64,000 bases of DNA from a virus. A program made the position numbers and the translations under genes. A model generated the notes under the pieces. The model searched no databases. It was not told the DNA's origin and was given only the letters and a program-made list of their open reading frames with translations. Of the stretch, positions 12,298 to 55,747 are shown in pieces; position 1 is the first letter of the stretch, and every line of letters starts with the position of its first letter. The stretch is from IMG/VR virus record IMGVR_UViG_3300045988_147856. One strand, written 5' to 3'.

Positions 12298-12807
12298 ATG
12301 GCAAAAGTGTTTTTTTGCCCACATTGTGGAAATGATTTAAACCTGTCAAGCAGCTCCGACCTTATACAATATAAAAATGGTGTATGCCAATATTGTGGGT
12401 TTGTGGGAAGTTTTTTGGATGTTGGACTGAACTATGATGAGTTTATCGACCAGCTCGGAGATTATTTGACAAAAATAAATCAGGACGATACCTTTGAAAA
12501 TATGTGGTACGCCCAAATAAAGATGTTCAAAATAGACCAAGATTCGCGCTTCGACAAAGAAGCGTCGCTTAAATCAATGAAGGACAAGGATAAAGAATTA
12601 CTTGAAGCACACTTGCAGTTTATAGCCAAAAGAAACGCTGAAAAGCAACGCGAAGCCGCCGCAAAACTCCACTGTCCAACCTGCGGGTCAACTAACATTA
12701 AAAAACTCGACGTCGTTGACCGCGCAGTATCTGTGGGGTTCTTCGGTATCTTTTCTAATAAGATAAACAAGAGCTTTAAGTGCAAGGACTGCGGGTGTAC
12801 TTGGTAA
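12298..12807 (+). CDS. Double zinc-ribbon protein (intron cargo, antisense to the intron)
   Basis: SD AAGGGAG upstream of the ATG. CPHCG...CQYCG at the N-terminus and CPTCG...CKDCG at the C-terminus. Confidence 0.65.
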   Translation: MAKVFFCPHCGNDLNLSSSSDLIQYKNGVCQYCGFVGSFLDVGLNYDEFIDQLGDYLTKINQDDTFENMWYAQIKMFKIDQDSRFDKEASLKSMKDKDKELLEAHLQFIAKRNAEKQREAAAKLHCPTCGSTNIKKLDVVDRAVSVGFFGIFSNKINKSFKCKDCGCTW

Positions 12808-12834
12808 TTAGCATTTGATGGCAAAAACTATAAT

Positions 12835-12889
12835 AGCCGCCAGCAATATTGACGAACTAATTAATGATACTGGCGGCTATATTTTTTTT
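12835..12889. terminator. Bidirectional hairpin between convergent genes
   Basis: AGCCGCCAG ... CTGGCGGCT, a 9-bp stem with a long 26-nt loop, followed by a T-run. Confidence 0.45.
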
Positions 12890-12891
12890 AA

Positions 12892-13431
12892 TTATGTGTT
12901 TGAGTTATATTCACGGGATTTGCTTTCAAGAAATTTGAAATCGACGCACCGACACGAAACTTTATCATTCGGGTAATTAAGCTTTAATTGATAAAGCCGA
13001 AAAGCCTTTTTCTCAATACCTAATTCGTTAATCTTAGATATCTCTTTCTTCAATAAGTCTATGTATTTTCCTTTTTCGGCAGAGGATGGAAATGTCCGAT
13101 ACTGGTCGATATCGCCATAATCTAAAGTTTTAAGCATCGTTTTTGGCAAAGGGAACATATAGTTTAAGTTAACAACAGCAATCAACCGATCCGGAGCTCC
13201 TGAAGAGCCGCCCGGGAGGTAAATTTTTTGAAAATCTAAGGCGTCGCGCATACTATGATGACGAGACTTGGGGTGAGATACCTGTGTAACATACACCAGC
13301 TCATCCATCTCAAAGAGAGTACCAAAGAACGGCTTAAATTTAGTCTCGCCATAATCTGAGTGTGGGATTCTGGGCTCAAATCCTCGAAGGTAGTTCAAAT
13401 AATCCTCGCTAATAATTACCCAATTTTGCAT
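12892..13431 (-). CDS. toxN: Type III toxin-antitoxin toxin, ToxN/AbiQ/CptN-family endoribonuclease
   Basis: Family pattern YLNYLR...KPFFG...VSHPKSRH...LDFQKIY...VVNLNYMFPLP. Preceded by a repeat array plus terminator in the canonical layout. Confidence 0.85.
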   Translation of the reverse strand: MQNWVIISEDYLNYLRGFEPRIPHSDYGETKFKPFFGTLFEMDELVYVTQVSHPKSRHHSMRDALDFQKIYLPGGSSGAPDRLIAVVNLNYMFPLPKTMLKTLDYGDIDQYRTFPSSAEKGKYIDLLKKEISKINELGIEKKAFRLYQLKLNYPNDKVSCRCVDFKFLESKSREYNSNT

Positions 13432-13441
13432 TTTCGCTCCT

Positions 13442-13471
13442 ATAAAAAATGGTCACATTTTAAATGCGACC
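13442..13471 (-). terminator. Intrinsic terminator separating the toxI repeats from toxN
   Basis: Minus strand GGTCGCAT-TTAAA-ATGTGACC followed by ATTTTTTAT. Confidence 0.8.
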
Positions 13472-13544
13472 ATTAATACGATTTTGGTAGGATTCGTAAC
13501 CTCTATTAATACGATTTTGGTAGGATTCGTAACCTCTATTAATA
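13472..13544 (-). ncRNA. toxI: ToxI-like antitoxin RNA: 2.2 tandem copies of a 33-nt repeat
   Basis: Exact direct repeats 13472-13504 and 13505-13537 plus a partial third copy. Located between a consensus promoter and a terminator upstream of toxN. Confidence 0.8.
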
Positions 13545-13572
13545 GTATACATAAAAGGATCGAAAATGTCAA
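13544..13572 (-). promoter_or_regulatory. Promoter of the toxI-toxN unit
   Basis: Minus strand TTGACA, 17-nt spacer, TATACT. Confidence 0.75.
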
Positions 13573-13609
13573 CTCAAAAAAATAATAAATTTTAGCCAGT
13601 CGCGTCCTC

Positions 13610-13807
13610 TTATTTCCCTTGATTATTATTGTCTCTTTCACAAAAGGATAAGCCACGCAGATTTGCTGTAGAAATAAGACTTCCTGAATTAGAAACATTA
13701 GCTCTAACCTTGGCGTTTGCCGATTCTATAAGATTTTTGTCCCTGTTACGAACAGGTGTAGAACGTTTTAAAACACCACCCATAAGCCTTTTCAACCTTT
13801 CAAACAA
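13610..13807 (-). CDS. Small highly basic protein (intron cargo)
   Basis: TTG start after SD GAGGTGGAG; 65 aa; no recognisable domain. Confidence 0.4.
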   Translation of the reverse strand: MFERLKRLMGGVLKRSTPVRNRDKNLIESANAKVRANVSNSGSLISTANLRGLSFCERDNNNQGK

Positions 13808-29273: not shown

Positions 29274-31043
29274 TTATTTAATAATAGGTTTCTTGAACGC
29301 AAACACTTTACGCTCGGGTGGTTTGTTGCTGGGCTTAAGCTTTCTCTCAAGCTCTTGAACAACCCAATAGTTGTAGCCGACCGATGACACTCGGTCTTTT
29401 CTCATACCGGACTGCTCTTTGACTTTTATTAAAGTACCTGTAGGTGTGTACTTTAGGCTTATTATTTCGTTAATAAAAAGCGTTGTGTGAATATATGGAA
29501 GCAGAACTTTACGCTTTAGCTCAGCGTCGTCAAGTATGGCTTGAACAATACCTCTCGGAAGTTCGTAGAAGTCATTTTCGGAACTAAGGAGTTTAATCTT
29601 ATTCTGTTTGAAGCCGTCACGCAACGCAAGATACATATCATTATTAAACTGACTTGTAGCCTGTATTGCCCAAATAACCTTTTTAGCCTCTCTATCTGTG
29701 CAACGAGCCGCGTACACATCGTCATTACAACAACTAAGTGGCGGGTAAGTGACATTGTACTCCGGGTCATATATGTCGCGCACGAGAGCGTCGTACACGC
29801 CTATACCAAGACCCTTAACATCGAGCGCTATATCAGTACAATGGAACTGCTCGTACAACCTGCGTATGCGCAGAGCGAGGTCGTTCGTATGAAGTCCCTC
29901 GTGATTCTCCGTATATATAAGGTTGCTGATATATCTGTTCTCCGAATTGGGTATAGCCCTATTAATCCATATAGACGCGGCGTCGTTATTTTGCTTCTTA
30001 GAAGCCAACAGCGCAACGTCGGCAGAGAGAACACGACGCTCATTAAATGCAAGCGGTGGTATCTTCTGTTTATAATTAGGTATAAGAGAGCTGATATAGT
30101 CGGGATATAGGGCTTGTTTTATCTGACGAGTTTTAGCTATATCATCGTAAGAGAACAGCGAGCCGTCCGTATCTCCGAACCACAAGCACTCCATCTCCAT
30201 ACCGAACGTCGTCTCTGACTGGTCGCCCTCGGAAAGCTCGTCCGCTATCTGATTCTTGTCAAGCAGGTGCTCTTTTATCGAAAGCTGATAGGGAAGCCCG
30301 CAGGTGAAATATTTGCGTTGATCATCACTCATATTCTTCGCGTATGCCTGAAGCTTGCCGAAAGACCAATGTGACTTATACCATGCAGACGAGAGATAAA
30401 CTTCTTTGTTTCTCTCCGTTAAATGTGCATATTTGGGATTGTTAAGATATCCCGGACTTCTCGGAGCCGTCAAAAATCTTTTGAGAACCGTTTGCATAAT
30501 AGTAAGCGGTATCATGCGAAACTCATCGCAGATATTAATATTAGCTCTGTTGTGTCGAGCTTCATCGTTTGCAGTTACGACGAATATACGGGATGTGTTC
30601 CTAAACACAATCTCCGCTTTGGACTGATTTATTGTTATGCCCTTCGGCTCTATCTCTAACTGAAGATTAGCGGAGTTGGGCATAAGAATCGTTTGTATTT
30701 TCGTTAAGACCTCGACGGACTGTCCACGGGTCTTAGACGCAATACAGATACCCGTACCGGGGTACAAAATACAACGCACACAGCAGAACACGGCGACTAA
30801 GAAGGTTTTTCCCTGACCTCTTGCTGCGATGTACATTGTATGGTCGTACCAGTTCATCATATACAAGATTATCTGCTGAAAAAGCTTAAGCTTAATATTA
30901 AGATAATCCAAGCAAAAACGGTGAGGATTAGCCCTATAGAACGAACACCATGCGTCCACGCCGTTCATAATTCGTTTAGCCTTATCGTTGGCTAACTCGC
31001 GATCGCTGAGCTTATTCCGTGTCGCCATAATCTTCACCGTCAC
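29274..31043 (-). CDS. terL: Terminase large subunit
   Basis: Walker A AARGQGKT, followed by a nuclease-like C-terminal half. The true start may be the ATG at 31028 (MATRNK). Confidence 0.8.
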   Translation of the reverse strand: MTVKIMATRNKLSDRELANDKAKRIMNGVDAWCSFYRANPHRFCLDYLNIKLKLFQQIILYMMNWYDHTMYIAARGQGKTFLVAVFCCVRCILYPGTGICIASKTRGQSVEVLTKIQTILMPNSANLQLEIEPKGITINQSKAEIVFRNTSRIFVVTANDEARHNRANINICDEFRMIPLTIMQTVLKRFLTAPRSPGYLNNPKYAHLTERNKEVYLSSAWYKSHWSFGKLQAYAKNMSDDQRKYFTCGLPYQLSIKEHLLDKNQIADELSEGDQSETTFGMEMECLWFGDTDGSLFSYDDIAKTRQIKQALYPDYISSLIPNYKQKIPPLAFNERRVLSADVALLASKKQNNDAASIWINRAIPNSENRYISNLIYTENHEGLHTNDLALRIRRLYEQFHCTDIALDVKGLGIGVYDALVRDIYDPEYNVTYPPLSCCNDDVYAARCTDREAKKVIWAIQATSQFNNDMYLALRDGFKQNKIKLLSSENDFYELPRGIVQAILDDAELKRKVLLPYIHTTLFINEIISLKYTPTGTLIKVKEQSGMRKDRVSSVGYNYWVVQELERKLKPSNKPPERKVFAFKKPIIK

Positions 31044-32043
31044 TTATAATGGCGTCCAGCAGTGCGTCGTCGTCTCCTTCGTATTCAGGCATCTCAACAC
31101 GATATTTTGCCATCTCTTCCTCATAAGCCGCACTGTATTTGTTCTGTACTCCCAACATCTTGCAAAGATGTCCCAAAAAATATACCGTTATATACTTGCG
31201 AATATTATCAACATCCTGCCATTCGGGGAGCGGCTCTGAAATGGGGCGTTCGTTCTCCCATTTCTTGATAAGAGTGCCAAAGGTATTTTGCTCAACCATA
31301 GCATTTTCGTTATTCTGACTTGGCTTTAAGTTTGCTGTGCCGAGGAGGTCTTGAAATACCTTAAGTGCCTCCACAAGCTTCATAGACCCCTTGCCTTGCT
31401 GAGCTTTTAGAATATTGAGCTGAGCGATGCACAGGTTTTTGAAGACCTCTTCCTGCGATTTAGTAGAACACTCATGCCGTGAAGTCCAGTCATCGTATTG
31501 CTCCTGAAGAAACTTAAGCTCTTCGGGTTCGAATCCGCCACCGAAGAACGCCAAGGTCTTCTGCTTTATTTTGATTTCGGAACTATTGTTCTTTAGATCT
31601 TCTACGTCATTAATGACAGTTTCCTCGTCGCGTATAGTATCGTCGTAAGTTTTACCTTGATAACAACGCAAGGACATTTTAGACACATATGAGCTCATGC
31701 GGCTGAACGACGCCGAACTCTTCTCAGTTGCATCGTATATCCTTTTCGAGAAATACCAGTCGAACTTCTGACATAGACGCTTCGTCGCCTCCATCTCTGA
31801 GCCAAGTTCGTCGGTATACAATTCAAACAGCTCCTCGACGCACGAGCGACACACGGGGATAAATCCGTCGTTGCCAACATGAATAGGGGATTGCGATCTA
31901 TAAAAGTTACCAGTAAGTTTAGTATATTTTTTGCCGCACATGGTGCAGTAGAACTCGGTTCGACCGTTGGACGACGCGGGCTTTTTCTTTTTCTTAGAGG
32001 TCGATTTAGAGCGACCTATTGAGTTTTGAGCTATGTTACCCAC
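31012..32043 (-). CDS. Terminase small subunit, putative (zinc-ribbon containing)
   Basis: Called by position upstream of terL. Basic N-terminus and CTMCG...CRSC. Weak SD. Confidence 0.4.
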   Translation of the reverse strand: MGNIAQNSIGRSKSTSKKKKKPASSNGRTEFYCTMCGKKYTKLTGNFYRSQSPIHVGNDGFIPVCRSCVEELFELYTDELGSEMEATKRLCQKFDWYFSKRIYDATEKSSASFSRMSSYVSKMSLRCYQGKTYDDTIRDEETVINDVEDLKNNSSEIKIKQKTLAFFGGGFEPEELKFLQEQYDDWTSRHECSTKSQEEVFKNLCIAQLNILKAQQGKGSMKLVEALKVFQDLLGTANLKPSQNNENAMVEQNTFGTLIKKWENERPISEPLPEWQDVDNIRKYITVYFLGHLCKMLGVQNKYSAAYEEEMAKYRVEMPEYEGDDDALLDAIISDGEDYGDTE

Positions 32044-32094
32044 ATCCTTTACATATAAAAATAGCGCCCCTATACGGGACGCAAAAAGTTAAAT

Positions 32095-32168
32095 TGGCGG
32101 CGCTTGCAGGATTTGAACCTACACTATCAGAGCCAAAATCTGATGTGCTGCCCTTACACCAAAGCGCT
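32095..32168 (-). tRNA. tRNA-Gln (anticodon UUG)
   Basis: Hand-folded cloverleaf: anticodon stem TCAGA/TCTGA, loop TTTTGGC, T-arm GTAGG-TTCAAAT-CCTGC, G73-CCA. The 1:72 position is an A/C mismatch. Confidence 0.7.
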
Positions 32169-32482
32169 GTATTGCAGGACTCGGGCGGATATCGCTTGCA
32201 TAATACCCGCCCAAAGTTCTGCTTAAGGAGGAATGAAATTTTGAAGCCGCTTGCAAGCAGCCGACAAAATGGAGTTGTCTAATTGAACCGCCCATATGGG
32301 CGGTATTTGTAAAACTAAGGAAACGTCGTAACGCTTCCTATACAAAGGCGAATGAGCCTTTTGATAACCTAAGTTAAAATCCAAGTCACGTCTTTTCGTC
32401 AGCCATCGTTTTACCGTCCGCAAACTTGTGCGCCCGATTCGTCCCGGAACGCCCGATACTTAACTTCTCGCGCTTGGATTTT

Positions 32483-32557
32483 TGGAGCATCCTGCGTGAC
32501 TCGAACACGCAACCCGCTGCTTACAAGGCAGCCGCTCTACCATTGAGCCAAGGATGC
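32483..32557 (-). tRNA. tRNA-Thr (anticodon UGU)
   Basis: Perfect cloverleaf: acceptor GCATCCT/AGGATGC, D-stem GCTC/GAGC, anticodon stem GCTGC/GCAGC with loop CTTGTAA, T-arm GCGTG-TTCGAGT-CACGC, CCA end. Confidence 0.9.
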
Positions 32558-32666
32558 ATATACTCGGATTTGATATCGCTGGGACACATCATAGAGAGGT
32601 GCGGATAGTCTGACGTACCGAGCTTGTGGCGCAACCCCACACGTCCCCGCTGTACACACGGGATAT

Positions 32667-32742
32667 TGGTTGCGGAGGCGGGACTTGAACCCACGACCTT
32701 TAGGGCATGAACCTAATGAGCTACCAACTGCTCCACTCCGCT
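32667..32742 (-). tRNA. tRNA-Met-like (anticodon CAU) with initiator-type backbone
   Basis: AGCGGAG-TG-GAGC-AGTTGGTA-GCTC-A-TTAGG-TTCATGC-CCTAA-AGGTC-GTGGG-TTCAAGT-CCCGC-CTCCGCA-A-CCA. Shows a 1:72 mismatch, A11:U24 and A73. Confidence 0.8.
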
Positions 32743-32766
32743 ATATAAAACAACAGCAAGCAAACC

Positions 32767-32785
32767 GTCTAACAATTGTCTAACA
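32767..32785 (+). repeat. Integrase arm-type site pair (GTCTAACA x2)
   Basis: GTCTAACAattGTCTAACA lies left of the att core. The same motif recurs right of the core. Confidence 0.55.
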
Positions 32786-32908
32786 CCATTATTATTTAGC
32801 GATTTTTCGCACCATGCGAACCGTTTATTAATTGCGTTATATAGGTAAAATCACGGCTTTACACTGCATGGAATCGAATGACACTGTTTGATATTCGCGT
32901 CACAACCA

Positions 32909-32953
32909 CTGTTAACCGCAGGGTCGTTGGTTCGAGTCCAACAGGGGGAGCCA
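32909..32953 (+). other. attP core: 3' half of a tRNA-Asn(GUU) gene (anticodon loop to CCA)
   Basis: CTGTTAA-CCGCA-GGGTC-GTTGG-TTCGAGT-CCAAC-AGGGGGA-G-CCA with no matching 5' acceptor or D-arm upstream. Adjacent to int. Confidence 0.7.
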
Positions 32954-32961
32954 TCTCAGAA

Positions 32962-32999
32962 GCCTTGAGCCTCAACGGGTTCAGGGCTTTTTCTTTTTC
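32962..32999 (+). terminator. Intrinsic terminator after the tRNA-Asn fragment
   Basis: GCCTTGAGC/GTTCAGGGC stem (two G.U pairs) followed by TTTTTCTTTTT. Confidence 0.65.
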
Positions 33000-33023
33000 T
33001 AAAATAGCTCGAAATTCCCATGT

Positions 33024-33043
33024 GTCTAACGTTTTGTCTAACA
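33024..33043 (+). repeat. Integrase arm-type site pair (GTCTAAC x2)
   Basis: GTCTAACgttttGTCTAACA, overlapping the int stop. Confidence 0.55.
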
Positions 33044-34192
33044 CGCCTGAGCTAAAGTTTCGCGAATAATTTCAGAGGTCATCTTTTTCCTCGACAAATC
33101 AAGGTGTCCATATATATTACAAGTCATCTTTATATCGGCGTGACCCATCCAATCTTGGACGTCCTTGAGTGAACAACCTTTGGCGAGAAGAAGGCTCGCA
33201 CAACTATGTCTTAGATCGTGGAATCTTATATGCGGGAGATTATATTTTCTCAATAGGTCTCCGAATTTGTGCGATATATATGACGGGTCATACATTGCGC
33301 CATTCGCCCATTTGAAGATATAATCATTCTCCACATAGGTGTCTCCAAAGAACTCTCTGTTCTTCTGTTCCTCTTCTTTGAGCTGAAGCAGTAGCTCTCT
33401 AATTTCAGGAAACAGCGGAAACGACCGATAACTTGATTTGTTTTTGGTTTTGTCTTTCTCGACAACCTTGGTTGACATAGAGACCGTGTGGCGTATAAGG
33501 ATAGTATTTGTGTCAAAATCAATGCTTTGCCACTGTAGACCCAAAACCTCACTGCGCCGCAGTCCATACATGACTGTAGTTTGGATGAGCGGATGCAAAG
33601 GTTCGTCCTTTATGGTCTCAAGCAGAGTGTTAATTTCACTGGCGTTATACCACTCATACTCCCGTCTCTCAAGTTTTGGGAGTCTCACGAGTTCACAAGG
33701 ATTTGTACTTATCAGCCTGTGTCGCATAGCCTCCTTAAAGGCAAGCTGAAGAACATTCTTGTGCAGACGAAGGGTTTTAGGTGATAGACCGCCATTCCCA
33801 TCTTTTCTGCCGTGGGTCGCCTTATAGTCAAAATATTGCTGTATATTGTCAAGGTTGGCATCCACTAATTTTATTTTGTGTTCCTCAAAATACGGTTGAA
33901 CATGAGAATCAACTATAACCTTATAACCGTCCCAAGTTACAGTATCTATAAACGGCTTAGTCTCCGTGAGCCACTGGTCTAAGTAGTCCGAGATAAGTAT
34001 ATTGGGTTCATAAATCAGCTGAGCACTTTCATACTCGCTAATTATTGACCGCATAGCCGCCTCAGCTTTACGCAGATTATTCTTTACTTCATAACCTGTG
34101 TAAACCCACTTCTGCTTACGCTTTCCAGTGTTGTCTACGAAATTCAGAACGGCATAATATTTGCCGCGTTTTGCTTGCAAGCTTCCTGTCAA
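33038..34192 (-). CDS. int: Tyrosine integrase
   Basis: TTG start 8 nt after AAAGGAGA. HDLRHSCASLLLAKG and GHADIKMTCNIYGH catalytic boxes, plus an N-terminal SAM-like arm-binding region. Confidence 0.9.
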   Translation of the reverse strand: MTGSLQAKRGKYYAVLNFVDNTGKRKQKWVYTGYEVKNNLRKAEAAMRSIISEYESAQLIYEPNILISDYLDQWLTETKPFIDTVTWDGYKVIVDSHVQPYFEEHKIKLVDANLDNIQQYFDYKATHGRKDGNGGLSPKTLRLHKNVLQLAFKEAMRHRLISTNPCELVRLPKLERREYEWYNASEINTLLETIKDEPLHPLIQTTVMYGLRRSEVLGLQWQSIDFDTNTILIRHTVSMSTKVVEKDKTKNKSSYRSFPLFPEIRELLLQLKEEEQKNREFFGDTYVENDYIFKWANGAMYDPSYISHKFGDLLRKYNLPHIRFHDLRHSCASLLLAKGCSLKDVQDWMGHADIKMTCNIYGHLDLSRKKMTSEIIRETLAQAC

Positions 34193-34259
34193 TTAAATAA
34201 TCTCCTTTCTGTAGTCCGCTTGCTGTTGTACGGTCATTTTAGCACAACAGCGCAAAATG

Positions 34260-34436
34260 TCAACTACCGGCAGAAAGAAAATTTTCAATACTCTTTTTAG
34301 TAATTAAGTAGCTTGTACCTATACGAACAGAGGGAATAGTACCGTTATGTATAAGGTCATACGCAGCCTTTCTTCCTATTCGCAACATTGTCTGCATTTC
34401 TTTAACAGTTACCACATCAGGATAATTGTCAAACAA
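34260..34436 (-). CDS. xis: Excisionase-type helix-turn-helix protein
   Basis: VTVKEMQTMLRIGRKAAYDLIHNGTIPSVRIGTSYLITKKSIENFL matches the excisionase/MerR-like HTH pattern. TTG or GTG start; under the track size cutoff. Confidence 0.7.
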   Translation of the reverse strand: MFDNYPDVVTVKEMQTMLRIGRKAAYDLIHNGTIPSVRIGTSYLITKKSIENFLSAGS

Positions 34437-34469
34437 TCAAATCATTCCATTTCCTTTAAATTTTATCAA

Positions 34470-34619
34470 TCAATCAGTAACCACGAGCACAATAGAAGGT
34501 CCACTCGCTACAATTTCATCATCTCTATATGGCTCTACTATTGTCGCCTCCACACCCTCGCGCTTTTTAAGTTCTTCCACGAGGTCTTTTGTGGATATCT
34601 CAGTAAGAGAATAACTCAT
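34470..34619 (-). CDS. 49-aa BC1881-like small protein
   Basis: MSYSLTEISTKDLVEELKKREGVEATIVEP..., with SD AAAGGAG upstream. Confidence 0.55.
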   Translation of the reverse strand: MSYSLTEISTKDLVEELKKREGVEATIVEPYRDDEIVASGPSIVLVVTD

Positions 34620-34940
34620 TTAGCACACTCCTTTGCTTCGCACCATTTTGCCGATGTCGGCAATTTGGTTAATATAAGATTTTATCAGTGCCCTGCGGAA
34701 ACTGTCTACTCCTCATCAGTGGAGCGACTTTCTATCCGCAGGGTCTTTTAGTTCCCGCCGCGAGTTCACGGCTTTGTAAACCCTACGACTCGTCTACCGC
34801 TTATGGTGCGGCGCATCCTCGTAGAGCGTAATCAGTAACTGCATAACCGCCATTATTACAGTTTGCAAAAAGAAGTAGATTTTCCATTTAAACTCCTGCA
34901 CCCATAGTTAATGGTGAGATAGACTGTCCATCTCGCCACT

Positions 34941-35048
34941 TTAAGTCCCTACTTACGGCAAGGGATTTCCGCTTTTTTAAGTCCCAACTTACGGTATGGG
35001 ATAACCGCTTTTTTAAGTCCTGCTTTTACGGCGCAGGATCTCCGCTTA
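34941..35048 (+). repeat. Three tandem 36-nt hairpin units with compensatory stem substitutions
   Basis: U1 TTAAGTCCCTACTTACGGCAAGGGATTTCCGCTTTT; U2 TTAAGTCCCAACTTACGGTATGGGATAACCGCTTTT; U3 TTAAGTCCTGCTTTTACGGCGCAGGATCTCCGCTTAG. Confidence 0.85.
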
Positions 35049-35070
35049 GACATGGGTGACAGAAGTATCG

Positions 35071-35175
35071 TTATATCACGCCAAGGCTCGCGAGCAGCTG
35101 GATAATTGCCACAATAGCAATACCACCAGTGAGAGCAAAGACGTTTAAAAAGTTGTAGATCAATGCAATCAGCAT
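35071..35175 (-). CDS. 34-aa hydrophobic peptide
   Basis: MLIALIYNFLNVFALTGGIAIVAIIQLLASLGVI. SD AAAGGAGAG lies directly after the HU stop. Under the track cutoff. Confidence 0.45.
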   Translation of the reverse strand: MLIALIYNFLNVFALTGGIAIVAIIQLLASLGVI

Positions 35176-35187
35176 AATATCTCTCCT

Positions 35188-35478
35188 TTACAGGTCGGCG
35201 TAGTCGGGCTCAGTGCTCGGGAAGAACGCTACGCCCGGCACGAACTTAATAACATCCGACGGCTCCGGCACACACATCTCTCCCGTTACCGGGTGTCGGT
35301 AAGGCTTCGGCTTACGCCTAACCTTCTGAAATGTACCAAAACCATATATTGACAGCTTATCTCCGTCGTTAACGACCTTGGAGATAGCGTTGCACACTGC
35401 ATTAATGCAGAACTCTGAATCACCGAGGGTGAGAGAGTTATCTTTCGCCACAAGTCTTATAAGTTCCTTGCGATTCAA
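35188..35478 (-). CDS. HU/IHF-family DNA-binding protein
   Basis: TTG start after GAAAGGAAG. GFGTFQKVRRKPKPYRHPVTGE matches the HU beta-arm pattern. The track start at 35604 overlaps the upstream gene. Confidence 0.8.
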   Translation of the reverse strand: MNRKELIRLVAKDNSLTLGDSEFCINAVCNAISKVVNDGDKLSIYGFGTFQKVRRKPKPYRHPVTGEMCVPEPSDVIKFVPGVAFFPSTEPDYADL

Positions 35479-35497
35479 ATTATCTTCCTTTCTTTCC

Positions 35498-36481
35498 TCA
35501 AAAGGCGACAAGCTTCGTCGCCGACTCAATGTTATAACCATCTTTATCGAGACACACATAAATACAACCCTGCTGCTGAGAGTTAACCAACGCGCCGTCA
35601 CCATATCTCATTTTCTGTGTCTCACACGCCGCACCCTGCTCATACATAGTGGTGTTTCCGATTTTATACGAACCGAGTCTGTGCGTATGCGCCATTACAA
35701 GGCAGTTGAAATCATACCCTTCATTGCGGAACCACAGCACAGCTTTCTCCGCCGTCTTCATAGGTGAACTGCTAAAAGCCTTCGGGTGAACAAACATTAC
35801 ATGACCTATCTGCGAAAACCACTCGCCAGTATAAACGACTTCGATATCATCGAATGTCTCACGAAGCGGCTCAAACCACGTCTTAATATGATTGCGACGG
35901 TCGTAATGATAGAAGCCATCAACGAAGATGTAGTCCAGTGCCGTCTCGGGCATAAGCTCCTGAAGGTCTGAATCGAGGTGGTTGGCGAGATATGCTCCGA
36001 GGCGAAGCTCATGGTTGCCGTAGTTTGCGATGACCTTCTTCGGTTTTATGTAGTCAATAAGGTCTATAATGTACTGCCGACCCTCAACCAGTTCCTCGAT
36101 ACACGGTATGCGATACGACTTCGAGAATTTGGATATCGACTGACAATCAAATATATCTCCGTTGAGCTGTAGGATGTCTACACGCCCGACATACTTTGAA
36201 AATGTCTCTATAGGCTTTGCGAACGGGAAGTGCAGGTCTGATATAGACAGAACCCTCGTCGCCACGCCGCGCTCAGCTATCTCACGTTCATAGTTGCGAC
36301 CGCGATTGAAAGCGGCAAATTCTTTTCGATAAGCGCTCTCGCCGAGCGTCTGACCGCTTTCTGTATTGAGCAACTCGGCTATCTGGTCGCAAGTGAGACC
36401 ATAAATTTTCTTGTTATCGAAGAGCCGAACGAAGTAGTCAACATAGGACTCTCCGCTCTGCTTCTTAGCGAAGTCTTCCAT
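35498..36481 (-). CDS. Calcineurin-like metallophosphoesterase (Mre11/SbcD-like fold)
   Basis: Motifs SDLHFP, NGDIFD, GNHE and MAHTHRLG occur in the canonical order. Confidence 0.8.
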   Translation of the reverse strand: MEDFAKKQSGESYVDYFVRLFDNKKIYGLTCDQIAELLNTESGQTLGESAYRKEFAAFNRGRNYEREIAERGVATRVLSISDLHFPFAKPIETFSKYVGRVDILQLNGDIFDCQSISKFSKSYRIPCIEELVEGRQYIIDLIDYIKPKKVIANYGNHELRLGAYLANHLDSDLQELMPETALDYIFVDGFYHYDRRNHIKTWFEPLRETFDDIEVVYTGEWFSQIGHVMFVHPKAFSSSPMKTAEKAVLWFRNEGYDFNCLVMAHTHRLGSYKIGNTTMYEQGAACETQKMRYGDGALVNSQQQGCIYVCLDKDGYNIESATKLVAF

Positions 36482-36488
36482 CAGCGGC

Positions 36489-36668
36489 TCACCTCCACGG
36501 TTCGTGGCGAAGCTTCTTTAGGTAGCGCATCACCTTAAAGCCCTCGGTGCAGTAGTATGTTTTCTTTCGACTGGGAGCGTAGCGGTTCGTTACCGTTATA
36601 TGCGTTCCGGGAAACTTCTTTCTAATCTTAAAAGCTTCCTCCTGCGAGATTTTAACTATATAAACCAT
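36489..36668 (-). CDS. 59-aa basic protein
   Basis: ATG after AAAAGGAA; its stop overlaps the next start. Under the track cutoff. Confidence 0.5.
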   Translation of the reverse strand: MVYIVKISQEEAFKIRKKFPGTHITVTNRYAPSRKKTYYCTEGFKVMRYLKKLRHEPWR

Positions 36669-36835
36669 TCCTTTTTATCAATTTGGAGCGAGTTTTCTTA
36701 CCCCTCTCCTATTGTAACCGCACGGGACACCCCTAAAATTTGTCGCATAATACGGCTATTTTAAGGGGTCGTTTATCCCGTTTGGGTCGGATTTTAGCCT
36801 ATTTTTTGTAAATTTTTGCGTGATTTGTTGTCAAT

Positions 36836-39517
36836 TTACGCGAAATATTTATATCGAGTGTATCTCTTTCCATATAGCTCAACATCACCCTCGTCGTCTT
36901 CTGCGAGCAGTCCGATAGGTTCTGCACCCGCTTCGAGAACCTCGTAGAACGAGGTGTTGGGGTAGCCAAAGAGTATGTTAAATATCTTACGCTGAATCTG
37001 AGAATAACGAGATTCTTCTATCTGGCGCAGGAGGTAGACCATATCGCTCTTGGTGAACGACATATTGCCCACATATTCTACGCACTCCTGCCTAATATCG
37101 CAACACTGCATCTGTTTTACGGAAGATTCTATGTCCGAGGCATATACACTCTTTATCTCATTTGTCATGTCTGTTACGGCATTGATGACGCGGGTGACTT
37201 TCTCGTACTGTCTACGATGAACATCTATGCCATTACCCACAAGAGCGGAGAAGGGGAGGTACTCCTGCTTCTTTCCTATCTCTTCTCTCTGAGCCCTGTA
37301 CGAATTAATACAAGTCTGCACATGATCCATGGTCGTCAAATGCTTCTTGTAATTCTTTCGCTTGCGGTCATAGTAACCTTTGCCGATATCCTTCGCCTTG
37401 AAGAAGTTGGGTTTAATGGCTCTTCCGTCATCGCCCTCAATCTTATATTTATCACGCAGTCGGCGAAGCTCCTTAGCATTATTGATATTGAACTCTTTCT
37501 TTGCTTTGTCGATTTCAATGCCGCTCATAATATTCAAGATACATACATCTTTATATATTTCCTTAATATCACTATAACTGCCACCACGATTGAGGACATC
37601 CCATATGCGGGTATTGAGCTCCTGACTGAGGTTGATGATATCGCCTATAAGATTGTTGCTCGTTTTAACATCAAGGTCAACCTGCTCGTCGTGAGTGTAT
37701 CTGCGTTTTTTCTTAACGGACGAGACATCCGGAACCGCTATCAAAAACTTACCTTCGTTCTTAAGTGCAGCATTGATAAGGTGAAGATTATCCGTAACAA
37801 GCGAGGTATCTGAATCAAAATCGCAACCCGATAATTCGTTTAAGACATTTTCACCAATACTGTTTATACAGACTATCTCGTTCGTCAGATTAAAGTAGCG
37901 GTCGATCTCGCTACACTCCACATTCGTCGGAACCCACACATTGCTCATTGAGATATGGGGGCTGCGCGAACCTACGAGCCTCTGCCCGTACCCGAACCTC
38001 TTCGTATGTATGTTGCCAACACCCAGCACCGACACGCCGTCGAACTTGCCGATGCTCGCCTGTAACATCTCGATTGGATTGCCAAACAAGGTTTCGTAAT
38101 TGCCCTCGACAAGCACATGACCGAGCCTAAGATTTTTTGTAAAAGACTTAAGAATATCTATCTTGAAGTCATGATAAAGCTTCGTCTGCGCAAATCTGTC
38201 ATTGAGACCGAGAAGCTTGTATACAACATCATTCTTCGACTCAGCAGGGGAGATGTCGAATTCGTCTTCTATCGGATATTTGATATGGTAGCGCAGAACT
38301 GCGGGGTCTGTTCTGATAGCTGTCATATAGTCAAATGTCTCCTTGAGGAACGCCGCCGTCTCAGCCTTGTCCATCTGCAAGCTGTTGAGAAGCTGATAGT
38401 GCGTCTGCACCATACGCCCGTCAAAAAAGTGAGTCGGCTTATCATACTTAACAACGCCAAAAGTATTGTCGATGTGCTTCATCCAATCGTTTATCGTCCC
38501 GAACTTCAGATACTTGATGCTGCTCGGCGTGGTTACTATCTTTATATCTTCCACACGCTTCGCTTTAGTGTAGCCCTTTAGCTGGCTCACCTCTGTTATG
38601 CCGTGGTCGGCAAACCACTGCTGCAAGTTTGTATTGAAGCAACAGCATTTAAAGAAGAGGTTGCGGAGTAGTATCATGCCCTTATCGCTGTATTTGCCCA
38701 TAGCTGATATATCTATAAGCCCCTGTCCGTCCCAGATAGAGTTGGTTATCTGCTCGTCTTTTTCTTCGGCGATTAGGTGGTCGCCATCTTCGCTGACAGA
38801 CATAACCCTATCGAAGAATTTGCTCTCGTAGTCGTCTATCACGAGAATGTTCTCGGGGTTTATTTCCAGTATATCAATAATAGAGCTTGACGGCAGAGAG
38901 ATATATGACTCAAGCGCAGCAAGGTCTACCTCTTCACCCTCGGCGACTTTCAGTCCACACATCTCCCACTTGTGCATACGAGCATACAGCTTCTCGTCAA
39001 TAAAGAGACACTTGCCAACGCGAGAACTGCCGCTTGACCTCTTCCACCTGACATACCTTACTCCATTACACACAAAGCCGTCATTATACAGTGTCCTGCG
39101 CAGCTCCGCTGTGCTCTTCAGCGTCTTAGGTGTTTTGATAAGCGTGTATACGCCACCTTCAAAACCGAAGTATTTACCGAGCACCTCGTCAGATACCGGA
39201 TATTCCACAGGCTGTCCAAGTATTATTCCCACCAGCTCGCCGTCTTTTATAGCCACGCAGTCATTGAAGTTAAGGTCTGAGTCTTTATATCCAAAGCGAA
39301 TATACCTATTTCTACCGGCTTTATTAAACTCCGCCACCGAGTATTTAAAGGTTACATTTATTACACGCGAGGTATACTCTTTCTTTCTTCCGTAAAAGCT
39401 GAAGTTAGTGCGGCGGTACACTTTCTCATAAACCTCGCGCAGTTTTATCTGATCTAAACTGTAATCGAGTGTGTTGGCATATCGTCTATAATTGACCTTG
39501 CCGTCTTTATCCACCAA
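36836..39517 (-). CDS. YonO / RdRP-like single-subunit two-barrel RNA polymerase
   Basis: GSRSPHISMSNV followed ~45 aa later by LSGCDFDSD parallels the (K/R)xPxxH...SGxDxDGD catalytic arrangement of YonO and eukaryotic RdRPs. The frame is open to a possible ATA start at 39601. Confidence 0.6.
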   Translation of the reverse strand: MVDKDGKVNYRRYANTLDYSLDQIKLREVYEKVYRRTNFSFYGRKKEYTSRVINVTFKYSVAEFNKAGRNRYIRFGYKDSDLNFNDCVAIKDGELVGIILGQPVEYPVSDEVLGKYFGFEGGVYTLIKTPKTLKSTAELRRTLYNDGFVCNGVRYVRWKRSSGSSRVGKCLFIDEKLYARMHKWEMCGLKVAEGEEVDLAALESYISLPSSSIIDILEINPENILVIDDYESKFFDRVMSVSEDGDHLIAEEKDEQITNSIWDGQGLIDISAMGKYSDKGMILLRNLFFKCCCFNTNLQQWFADHGITEVSQLKGYTKAKRVEDIKIVTTPSSIKYLKFGTINDWMKHIDNTFGVVKYDKPTHFFDGRMVQTHYQLLNSLQMDKAETAAFLKETFDYMTAIRTDPAVLRYHIKYPIEDEFDISPAESKNDVVYKLLGLNDRFAQTKLYHDFKIDILKSFTKNLRLGHVLVEGNYETLFGNPIEMLQASIGKFDGVSVLGVGNIHTKRFGYGQRLVGSRSPHISMSNVWVPTNVECSEIDRYFNLTNEIVCINSIGENVLNELSGCDFDSDTSLVTDNLHLINAALKNEGKFLIAVPDVSSVKKKRRYTHDEQVDLDVKTSNNLIGDIINLSQELNTRIWDVLNRGGSYSDIKEIYKDVCILNIMSGIEIDKAKKEFNINNAKELRRLRDKYKIEGDDGRAIKPNFFKAKDIGKGYYDRKRKNYKKHLTTMDHVQTCINSYRAQREEIGKKQEYLPFSALVGNGIDVHRRQYEKVTRVINAVTDMTNEIKSVYASDIESSVKQMQCCDIRQECVEYVGNMSFTKSDMVYLLRQIEESRYSQIQRKIFNILFGYPNTSFYEVLEAGAEPIGLLAEDDEGDVELYGKRYTRYKYFA

Positions 39518-39603
39518 CGAATAACCTGCGTCGGGGTATAGCTCATTTGTTATGTATATATCCTTAGCGTCGATACCCGGTATATATATTGTATTACCTA
39601 TAG

Positions 39604-39753
39604 TTAATTCTCCTCATCCATATCCGTATTTATGGCTTGATTTCCATAGTCTATGTAATCGACTTCACCCCAGCTACCGTGGCAGGGGTAGTCGTTGTCG
39701 TCGTTGCCGCAGCGGTTAATCCACGGGCAACCCTCACAAAATCCTCTGTTCAA
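39604..39753 (-). CDS. 49-aa Cys-rich small ORF
   Basis: FCEGCPWINRCG...PCHGSW. Weak SD and TTG start. Its stop is embedded in the SD of the RNAP gene. Confidence 0.3.
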   Translation of the reverse strand: MNRGFCEGCPWINRCGNDDNDYPCHGSWGEVDYIDYGNQAINTDMDEEN

Positions 39754-39917
39754 CTTCTTTGTTTAATCCTTTCTTTAAAATGCCGTTCACACCTTTCCTT
39801 ATATCAGCCATACTCATTTTCGTTCGAGTTTTGCTGTCTATATATTACAAACTTCGGTTTAAAGTGTCCCGGTAGGGTAGTTTATGCCCCGAGTTTCAAT
39901 GTTTTATTTTTATGTAT

Positions 39918-40214
39918 TTAGCTTAGCCTTCTCCACTCTTCTCCATGATGAATGGTGCAGGTCTTTCCGCAAGTCGGACAATCGTCAGCAATTACAACAT
40001 GGTCGTCCTTAGACCACACCGCAACCCTCTTGCGTGAAGATATCCATTCTGTGTGGCAAGCGGAACACACGAAGCGCTCTTTATCGTTTACCATATCACT
40101 CTTCTTGGTTATGCGTCTGTGAGTGTAAGGCAGAGTTACTTCTAAAATAGAACCCACGATTGTACAAGACAGCAAAATAAAAAAGACCAACATTGCTACC
40201 ATCCCGTCTGTCAT
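39918..40214 (-). CDS. Membrane-anchored zinc-ribbon protein
   Basis: N-terminal TM segment, with CSAC...CPTCG. Confidence 0.55.
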   Translation of the reverse strand: MTDGMVAMLVFFILLSCTIVGSILEVTLPYTHRRITKKSDMVNDKERFVCSACHTEWISSRKRVAVWSKDDHVVIADDCPTCGKTCTIHHGEEWRRLS

Positions 40215-55036: not shown

Positions 55037-55066
55037 ATACATAACAGAAAGGAATTGAATTTGAAA

Positions 55067-55747
55067 ATGAAAACATATAAAGGATTCGACAAGGATTTAA
55101 AGTGCAGAGGTTTCCAATACGAAATAGGAAAAGAGTACGAAGAGGAAGAGGCAAAAGCTTGTGAAAAAGGATTTCACGCTTGCAAAAATCCTTTAGAAGT
55201 ATTCAGCTATTATCCGCCGTGCGATGGAAATCGATACTGCGAGGTGGAACAGGACGGAGAGCTTTCCGAACATAACGCTGACTCCAAAGTTGCCTCGACC
55301 AAAATAAAAATCGGCGTCGAACTTGGACTCAAGGGACTTATACAAGCAGGAGTATCATTTATTCTCGACCGTGTAAATTGGAAAGATGACGCGGCAACGA
55401 ATACGGGCAACTATTCAGCGGCAACGAATACGGGCGACCAGTCAGCGGCAACGAATACGGGCTTCCAGTCAGCGGCAACGAATACGGGCAACTATTCAGC
55501 GGCAACGAATACGGGCAACTATTCAGCGGCTGAAGTCTCAAACGGCGATTCTGTCGCAATAGCAACGGGTTATCAGTCTAAGGCAAAGGCAGGATTCGGC
55601 TCTGCTATCGTCATTGCGGAGCGCGGCGGTTGGAACGGCGAGACATATCCGCTAATTAGCATTAAGGCGGCAATGGTGGACGGAGAAAAAATTAAAGCTG
55701 ATACTTGGTACACCCTTGAAAACGGCGAGTTTGTCGAATGTGATTAA
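55067..55747 (+). CDS. Protein with five 9-aa AATNTG(N/D/F)(Y/Q)S repeats
   Basis: ORF with an in-frame 27-nt x5 tandem repeat. Start is either ATG 55067 or TTG 55055. Confidence 0.6.
   Translation: MKTYKGFDKDLKCRGFQYEIGKEYEEEEAKACEKGFHACKNPLEVFSYYPPCDGNRYCEVEQDGELSEHNADSKVASTKIKIGVELGLKGLIQAGVSFILDRVNWKDDAATNTGNYSAATNTGDQSAATNTGFQSAATNTGNYSAATNTGNYSAAEVSNGDSVAIATGYQSKAKAGFGSAIVIAERGGWNGETYPLISIKAAMVDGEKIKADTWYTLENGEFVECD
55391..55525 (+). repeat. 27-nt x 5 in-frame tandem repeat
   Basis: GCGGCAACGAATACGGGC(AACTAT/GACCAG/TTCCAG)TCA units. Confidence 0.9.

Follow-up and report, generated by a model that had tools for sequence, protein, structure and literature searches.

The stretch of viral DNA considered here (IMG/VR record IMGVR_UViG_3300045988_147856; 64,000 nt, hereafter the window) carries, in a non-coding region beside its integrase and excisionase-like genes, three tandem repeat units of about 36 nt that are almost certainly an orphan ToxI-like antitoxin array from a toxin–antitoxin (TA) system of type III, read on the minus strand. 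Judging from the homologous loci, the cognate toxin would be a ToxN/AbiQ endoribonuclease of the type encoded at a locus that we designate L022; the array is a member of this family by descent and is orphaned in the window, its toxN gene having been either left uncaptured or deleted later. As to what such an array would do in a prophage, the explanation that we favor, and consider rather probable, is that of a captured ToxI array employed as a decoy against abortive infection, by analogy with the pseudo-ToxI of phage ΦTE.

The repeat units and their ToxN relatives

Type III TA loci are laid out as a promoter, a series of tandem ~36-nt repeats that constitutes the RNA antitoxin, a terminator, and then the toxin gene (PMC5086642). 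The three units in the window, of 36, 36, and 37 nt, begin at positions 34941, 34977, and 35013, respectively; an initial annotation of this DNA, made from the letters alone, had spoken of exactly phased 36-nt repeats, which is right for the unit starts but not for the third unit, with its one additional loop base. Tandem Repeats Finder returns a period of 36 with 3.0 copies (score 109–127). Common to all three units are a loop core, TTACGG, and two flanks, TTAAGTCC and GGAT..CCGC, and the composite motif TTAAGTCC-N4-TTACGG-N4-GGAT-N2-CCGCTT has the array as its sole match in the 64-kb window, with 0 matches in 100 shuffles; no further copy of the units is found elsewhere in the window. The stem sequences change in a paired fashion from unit to unit (TCCCT/AGGGA, TCCCA/TGGGA, and TCCTGC/GCAGGA), just as had been noted initially, and a fourth variant, TCCTC/GAGGA, is seen in a unit at the locus designated L031.

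Upon scanning IMG/VR with this pattern, units outside the present phage lineage are seen in only two kinds of locus, namely the L022 and L035 contigs, and L031. At L022 and L031 the same palindrome and units lie directly upstream, in the minus sense, of an open reading frame (ORF) starting MENLHIYKVSDHYIRYL, which encodes 169 aa and whose L031 counterpart encodes 165 aa. Both products match Pfam ToxN_toxin (E 2.5e-50 and 7e-49), both are called AbiQ by PADLOC, and their closest solved structure is the ToxN of B. thuringiensis (PDB 4ATO, E 8e-22). In these two loci and in ~50 others a toxN gene follows the units in the same orientation, whereas the array in the window is followed only by a ribosome-binding site and ~6 toxN codons; a tblastn search for an L022-type toxN at the array site in the window returned none. 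The toxin gene of this type is often split even where it is present, into fragments of 68 aa (81 aa in L142) and 94 aa at L138, L141, and L142, and is thus frequently pseudogenized in natural prophages.

The extent of what the window shares with such loci is sharply defined. Aligned to L044, one of the loci with an intact toxN (L022/L044/L047/L035), the block is identical at 186 of 195 nt (95.4%). Running from 35061 to 34869, the alignment takes in 15 nt ahead of repeat 1, the three repeats, a hairpin, AGGAG, and the ATG plus 16 nt of toxN; homology ends 19 nt into toxN, and the sequence beyond is resident phage sequence. This block is the only DNA common to the window and the toxIN-bearing loci. 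Its parts, together with the ORF that precedes it, are collected in Table 1.

Table 1. Coordinates in the window of the captured block, its components, and the adjacent small ORF
Feature	Position	Strand	Remarks
Captured toxI block	34869..35061	-	Closing-helix 5' strand, three repeats, hairpin, ribosome-binding site, first toxN codons
Repeat 1 in sense order (unit 3 of the initial annotation), 37 nt	35013..35049	-	GCGG AGA UCCUG CG CCGU AAAAG CAGGA CUUAAAAAA
Repeat 2, 36 nt	34977..35012	-	GCGG UUA UCCCA UA CCGU AAGU UGGGA CUUAAAAAA
Repeat 3, 36 nt	34941..34976	-	GCGG AAA UCCCU UG CCGU AAGU AGGGA CUUAAAG
Hairpin, sense GGCGAGAUGGACAGUCUAUCUCACC	34913..34937	-	Position of the antitoxin/toxin terminator in type III loci; same hairpin in L044
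Ribosome-binding site AGGAG (34897-34893), ATG (34887-34885), and ~6 toxN codons (MENL...)	34869..34897	-	Fused to resident phage sequence
Enclosing helix, 5' strand, sense CACCCAU	35052..35058	-	RNAfold minimum free energy (MFE) structure
Enclosing helix, 3' strand, sense AUGGGUG	34899..34905	-	RNAfold MFE pairing with 35052-35058
7-nt direct repeat AGAAGTA, left copy	34871..34877	.	Filled versus empty alleles
7-nt direct repeat AGAAGTA, right copy	35061..35067	.	Filled versus empty alleles
34-aa hydrophobic ORF (context, outside the system)	35071..35175	-	Stop codon 10 nt upstream (sense) of block

Pseudoknot structure and the functional strand

The homologous arrays make it possible to examine the fold of the unit by covariation. 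Homologues of toxN were gathered from species-representative genomes (7 loci, all metagenome-assembled genomes of Clostridia) and from IMG/VR (80 viral loci), and their upstream regions gave 52 distinct arrays and 66 distinct units. About 50 distinct loci display a single layout of promoter, leader, ~3 units of 36 nt, hairpin, ribosome-binding site, and toxN. Written in the sense of toxN, the unit reads AAA GCGG AAA UCCCU UG CCGU AAGU AGGGA CUUAAA, in which the sequences first noticed as a conserved flank (CCGC) and a conserved loop core (TTACGG) pair with each other in a second helix, GCGG:CCGU, interleaved with the 4–5 bp hairpin. On this comparative evidence, each unit is an H-type pseudoknot with A-rich linkers, and both of its stems are backed by covariation.

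With fixed offsets and no fitting, the second pair of the pseudoknot stem is never mismatched: 59 units have C-G there, and the other 7 have A-U. The GCGG:CCGU helix as a whole has 96.5% of its cells paired, as against 27–76% when the partners are slid, and across both helices of the 40 ungapped units the corresponding figures are 92.2% and 27–49%. Double-sided changes in these 40 units number 71, compared with 22 +/- 3 in shuffles, none of the 500 of which reached so high a count, and the fifth pair of the hairpin employs all four Watson-Crick types. The suggestion that the paired stem changes reflect a selected RNA structure as opposed to a protein-binding site is supported by this covariation, and the conservation of the hairpins among relatives, with covarying stems, is borne out by the 66 distinct units from toxN loci.

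It is the minus strand that carries this structure. Read on the plus strand, the second helix contains an A.C mismatch in most units, with more mismatches in the variants, and the functional strand is therefore the minus strand. The initial emphasis on the plus strand was thus misplaced, since full pairing of GCGG:CCGU is obtained on the minus strand alone; the G.U pair that had been cited as unique to the plus strand, at the base of the stem, does exist, but it is not conserved in the family, and the minus strand keeps every pair. In the window all three units are complete and correctly phased, with both stems intact (for repeat 1, 4/4 pairs in the pseudoknot stem and 5/5 in the hairpin stem on the minus strand). 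Successive units have A5-6 linkers between them, which fit the A-rich sites cleaved by ToxN-family toxins, A/AAAA for ToxN(Bt) and A/AAA for AbiQ (PMC5086642). Rfam searches at E<=10 over 30000-40000 and 12800-13700 returned only tRNAs and noise, and no ToxI, CRISPR-DR, or ribozyme family.

Structure is also predicted around the units. In the RNAfold MFE structure of the minus-strand RNA (z = -4.3), a helix CACCCAU/AUGGGUG encloses the whole array, and equivalents are seen in homologues (GCCCAU/AUGGGC, UGCCCAUGA/UCAUGGGCA, and GCUCGUG/CACGGGC); an automated search for the closing helix in all homologues gave a clear outcome for some subfamilies only. The GC-rich hairpin that follows the array has no U-tract in this subfamily, whereas most of the homologous loci feature a GC hairpin plus a T-run; at L133 it displays a compensatory change, GACGAG/CUCGUC. 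The central 15 nt of this hairpin (34919-34933) are reverse-complemented between haplotypes, GATGGACAGTCTATC versus GATAGACTGTCCATC, a difference that is an inversion of the hairpin top (the same hairpin is present in L026, L027, L033, L128, and others). Separately, many members of the toxIN family (L040, L043, L053, L055, and others) have, in the leader 5' of the array, a CCUCC-like sequence complementary to the toxN ribosome-binding site GGAGG, which suggests, from complementarity, that translation of toxN is occluded over a long range until array processing takes place.

Copy number and placement among relatives

Via the metallophosphoesterase gene, 21 related loci were obtained, and the intergenic region was aligned. 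A 190-nt block comprising the three units, the palindrome, and ~40 nt more is present in about half of these near-identical phages and precisely absent from the others, and it is bordered by the 7-nt direct repeat AGAAGTA. In ten further prophage copies on long bacterial contigs, this site has no unit, one (a hybrid), two, or three. In L017 and L020 the usual site is empty, and bare units lacking any toxN remnant are found ~130 nt away, three identical ones in L017 and two in L020. At L003, where the site is empty, the 7-mer is still the one derived from toxN, ATATGTA, so that at least some empty sites are secondary losses. Two other kinds of element were considered and rejected: arm sites of attP, given that the block is absent from relatives sharing the integrase, and a mobile hairpin resembling a miniature inverted-repeat transposable element or a repetitive extragenic palindrome, which the flanking 7-nt repeats and variable position had brought to mind and which is ruled out by the block being a contiguous piece of a toxIN operon.

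Substitutions were analyzed in 12 distinct three-unit orphan haplotypes. Five fall in stems: two are G to A changes in a G.U pair, two are C to U changes, one of them in the pseudoknot stem and one in the hairpin stem, and the last is an A to G change, also in the hairpin stem. On the minus strand pairing survives each of the five, as A-U or G.U, and on the plus strand each would create a mismatch. Every unit in the 12 haplotypes retains 4/4 and 5/5 pairs on the sense strand.

The second site has features of its own. Upstream of xis and int lies a long, conserved hairpin of ~55 nt (34692-34745, sense minus), also present in L013, L125, and L131, with an outer stem CCCUGCGG/CCGCAGGG and an inner stem CUCC/GGAG. 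The outer stem covaries, being CUUACGA/UCGUAAG in a second copy in L125, and the interior differs in L131. The second-site units of L017 and L020 abut the 5' base of this hairpin. A hammerhead ribozyme was entertained for it on account of the motifs CUGAUGA, GAAA, and GUC, and was rejected: these lie off the helix junctions and are unconserved in L013/L125/L131, and there is no Rfam match. The sequence resident at this second site (34746-34790, sense GCCGUGAACUCGCGGCGGGAACUAAAAG) resembles the 3' half of a unit (GCCGU...GGGAACUAAAA); speculatively, and by analogy with ΦTE, it could be an old partial pseudo-unit from which expansion is seeded.

The prophage and its host

The window is from a large temperate, SPbeta-like phage. 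It encodes a large terminase (TerL) ~47% identical to those of SPbeta-like Bacillus phages, an integrase, and YonJ/YonG-like genes, with YonJ and YonG Pfam domains in neighboring genes, and from position 1 to ~44000 all genes are on the minus strand. The lineage is known from metagenomes only, and megablast and blastn searches of GenBank phages with the region gave no informative match. A public collection indexes the metallophosphoesterase, as the exact protein, in 9014 blocks, and on some of these contigs, of >2 Mb, the integrase abuts bacterial genes, from which it follows that this is a very common prophage (human gut). Along the minus strand, genes for an 893-aa protein, the metallophosphoesterase, an HU-like protein (35188-35604), and the 34-aa ORF precede ~450 nt of non-coding DNA containing the array; beyond it come genes for a 49-aa protein, an HTH_17 (excisionase-like) protein, and the tyrosine integrase (33038-34192), and then three tRNA genes.

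The L022-type toxIN resides at the lysis-gene end of a ~40 kb prophage found at several chromosomal insertion sites. Exact matches to host proteins at the flanks place the two elements in the same NCBI accession series: MBS5015103 and MBS5015105 flank the toxIN prophage and MBS5014551 the window-type prophage, and in a second series MBD9211995 and MBD9211153 are to MBD9212316 as the first pair is to MBS5014551. The source names of these proteins are Acutalibacteraceae, Oscillospiraceae, or Ruminococcus sp., and the two elements co-occur in metagenome 3300029713. The donor toxIN prophage and the SPbeta-like prophage thus appear, from the accession series, to share one host species (Acutalibacteraceae or “Ruminococcus sp.”).

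A decoy against abortive infection, or a relic?

Phage ΦTE escapes ToxIN either by expanding a pseudo-ToxI repeat or by capturing toxI through recombination (PMC3475682). The SPbeta-like prophage has, on the evidence of homology, taken up a 195-nt segment of a toxIN operon from another prophage of apparently the same host species. If the array in the window operates analogously, it would be transcribed together with the upstream HU-like and 34-aa ORF genes. In a cell possessing the cognate ToxN, the precursor would be cut in its A-rich linkers to yield ~36-nt monomers, each folding into an H-type pseudoknot (GCGG:CCGU plus UCCCU:AGGGA) that binds ToxN and obstructs the active site, in the manner of ToxIN(Pa) and ToxIN(Bt). 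The decay of host ToxI during infection would then no longer release the toxin, and abortive infection would fail. Array RNA made by the resident prophage could also neutralize, or “un-addict,” a co-resident toxIN prophage. Indirect support for expression comes from the array being oriented as are the flanking genes, with no predicted terminator between; the transcript of the 34-aa ORF probably reads into the array on this model. The bare second-site arrays, moreover, parallel both the repeat expansion and the toxI capture of ΦTE (PMC3475682), and the range of 0 to 3 units at the main site among near-identical prophages counts in favor of continuing use.

Several observations weigh against this reading. 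Between the 34-aa ORF and the array the minus strand has no predicted sigma-70-like promoter, and the native toxIN promoter and leader lie outside the captured segment, so transcription would rest on read-through. The hairpin after the array has a C.A mismatch in the window, and its center is inverted in most orphan haplotypes. As the block is missing in about half of the relatives and its absence from L003 is a secondary loss, it is dispensable. It may also be that some stem variants originated in intact loci and were brought in through recombination. No single contig bearing both prophages was found in the look-ups made, and host sharing thus rests on accession-number proximity. More generally, loss of the toxin with retention of the antitoxin is the expected route of decay for any TA module, and an orphan array can be a neutral relic.

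That last possibility is the main rival. On this account, which we regard as unlikely although deserving of serious consideration, a toxIN module was once carried, or was partly captured, and toxN was lost; the array is now decaying, with its copy number drifting by replication slippage, and has no current function. The toxN remnant and ribosome-binding site still joined to the array, the missing native promoter, and the frequent splitting of L022-type toxN, which marks the family as one that decays, are all as a relic would have them, and the empty sites would reflect loss by recombination between the 7-nt flanking repeats. The units are, furthermore, as variable as the neighboring non-coding DNA, with 7/107 variable columns versus 12/130 in the resident non-coding flank (p=0.48), a comparison that also tells against a decoy. 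On the other hand, the units are threefold less variable than the toxN-proximal remnant (7/107 versus 16/73 variable columns in the hairpin, ribosome-binding site, and toxN remnant; Fisher p=0.003). The retention of every sense pair in 12/12 haplotypes and the pair-preserving nature of 5/5 stem substitutions likewise speak against decay, and the bare second-site units devoid of a toxN remnant, three of them identical in L017, are predicted by ΦTE-type escape but not by decay.

Beyond the assignment of a decoy function, a broader formulation strikes us as evenly balanced between true and false: that a widespread gut prophage deploys a stolen antitoxin array against the ToxIN of a competing prophage, its own toxIN being non-cross-reacting, that this is the first natural, population-scale case of the RNA-mimicry escape seen with ΦTE, and that the 0–3 units and two sites reflect an ongoing arms race.

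Other readings of the array

It is very improbable that the array serves as antitoxin for a toxin of the phage's own, whether a ToxN or the hydrophobic 34-aa peptide next to the array. A protein of the ToxN family is indeed encoded in the window, within a complete second type III TA locus on the minus strand (12892-13590). The promoter of this locus is TTGACA-17-TATACT; its 33-nt repeats, identical and 2.2 in number (13472-13544), match no Rfam family (12800-13700, E<=10); a hairpin with a U-run and a ribosome-binding site are present as well; and the ToxN itself has 179 aa (12892-13431; Pfam ToxN_toxin, E 2.5e-40). The own ToxN, however, has this canonical antitoxin, of unrelated repeat sequence and with promoter and terminator, directly upstream, and it shares only ~25% identity with the ToxN of the L022 type. 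Selectivity for the partner toxin is a property of type III antitoxins, there being no cross-talk between the Pectobacterium and Bacillus systems (PMC5086642), and the 36-nt array is therefore unneeded for the phage's own ToxN.

The 34-aa ORF, for its part, had been proposed as the partner of an antitoxin-like array; “antitoxin-like” was correct in kind, the array being a type III ToxI-like RNA antitoxin, but the partner is ToxN/AbiQ and not the peptide. The ORF does exist where it was placed, 10 nt from the block, and the 9–10 nt by which L017 and L020 differ in it are all synonymous. On the strength of these differences, it is taken to be a real gene under purifying selection, independent of the array; it is conserved in relatives with or without the array, which removes the peptide as its partner. 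Its product is probably a small membrane protein, encoded in the operon of the HU-like gene.

Equally improbable is an element acting from the plus strand, be it three tandem intrinsic terminators, an insulator of int-xis, a DNA cruciform, or a protein-binding repeat. Each hairpin is indeed followed by TTTCCGCTTTTTT on the plus strand; these T-runs, however, are simply the complement of A-rich linkers conserved in every intact toxIN locus. A terminator scan calls none of the hairpins, the loops of which are 9–10 nt; the second stem is mismatched on this strand, as described above; and no plus-strand gene lies upstream. The insulator suggested initially is unlikely in particular, with the block absent in many relatives that have the same int and xis.

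The phage RNA anti-CRISPRs (Racrs) are solitary CRISPR-repeat units, and a Racr mimicking a type I repeat of the host had also been proposed, from the plus-strand end of unit 2 (GGGATAACCGC), which presumably resembles the 3' handle of type I-E repeats. This can scarcely be the explanation: the ATAACCGC “handle” is seen in unit 2 only, within a loop, L1, that varies across the family (AAA, AGA, ATA, TTA), the functional strand is the opposite one, and the arrays to which the units are homologous are always followed by a toxN gene. The parallel statement that this is not a CRISPR array was accurate, as there are no spacers and no Rfam CRISPR-DR match at E<=10. Nor was a host CRISPR array with repeats like these units seen, a negative that does not extend to whole host genomes. 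Racrs are nonetheless alike in principle to the decoy proposed here, in that a phage carries the RNA “guide or antidote” of a defense system without its protein; they differ in the defense system and RNA concerned, and the present units have no spacers, CRISPR-DR match, or conserved handle.

Relation to known type III systems and their inhibitors

The closest described counterparts of the array are the ToxI RNAs of P. atrosepticum (pECA1039) and B. thuringiensis (pAW63, PDB 4ATO) and the antiQ of AbiQ in L. lactis. Here, too, tandem repeats of ~34–36 nt stand upstream of a ToxN_toxin gene, and, as in the loci homologous to our array, a single promoter serves both and a hairpin separates antitoxin from toxin. 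ToxI and antiQ monomers are H-type pseudoknots with single-stranded A-rich tails that are the toxin cut sites (PMC5086642), a structure predicted for the present units as well, and the cognate toxin (L022) belongs to the ToxN family and comes closest to ToxN(Bt). The differences are that the repeat sequence of this array is unrelated to those of described ToxI RNAs and has no Rfam match at E<=10, that the lineage comes from gut Clostridia (Oscillospirales) and their prophages, that the intergenic hairpin of this subfamily lacks a U-tract, and that the window has no toxin gene at the array and hence no TA system there.

Closer still in the proposed function are two RNAs of the Pectobacterium phage ΦTE, its pseudo-ToxI and its hijacked ToxI (Blower et al., 2012; PMC3475682). 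As in the window, these are phage-borne ToxI-like arrays without toxN whose copy number shifts by expansion, or which are acquired by recombination with a toxIN locus (as in ΦTE-F), and they are proposed to act as RNA mimics that suppress ToxN-mediated abortive infection, the function that is predicted here. The ΦTE variants, however, were selected in the laboratory from a 1.5-repeat locus, whereas the present case is a natural, population-wide polymorphism (0–3 units, two sites), and it concerns a temperate prophage, SPbeta-like, whose host is a gut Firmicute. This array differs further from those of ΦTE in still having the start of toxN and its ribosome-binding site, in its 95% identity to the donor, and in deriving from another prophage and not from a plasmid. 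In the literature searched, RNA-based escape from type III TA or abortive-infection systems is described for ΦTE only, under laboratory selection (PMC3475682). T4-like phages employ instead TifA, a protein that binds both ToxN and RNA (PMC10853763); inhibitors of this type are likewise phage counter-defense against ToxIN, but in the present case the inhibitor would be the cognate antitoxin RNA.

Other features of the region

A few further observations concern the surrounding genome. The 893-aa gene (phrog_8308; 36836-39517, minus) is split in L125, L126, and L130 into ORFs of 567 aa and 330 aa by a 233-aa NUMOD4/HNH_3 ORF, in what looks like an insertion of a homing endonuclease (intron-like). 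The block at ~34445-34680 containing the 49-aa phrog_5765 gene is also polymorphic for presence and absence, independently of the array state, all four combinations being seen. The tRNA genes just past the integrase (32095-32742, minus) are Gln-TTG, Thr-TGT, and Met-CAT; many IMG/VR contigs of this phage end near 32800-33400, and in L014 a tRNA-like sequence takes the place of int and part of xis. At 55391-55530, a 27-nt repeat in 5.2 tandem copies (92% matches) lies within the ORF 55055-55747 and gives rise to a 9-aa repeat.

Implications

The ~50 related toxIN loci constitute a well-supported pseudoknot family from gut Clostridia that lies outside Rfam. For annotation, short hairpin repeats near int-xis in Firmicute prophages merit comparison, on both strands, with type III antitoxins. 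The alleles with 0, 1, 2, and 3 units, together with the second insertion site, offer a natural series in which to gauge the cost and benefit of the array. Were the decoy explanation true, it would mean that human-gut phages capture antitoxin RNAs from rival prophages in nature, and a single prophage bearing its own toxIN along with a decoy against another toxIN would illustrate the conflict of prophage versus prophage.

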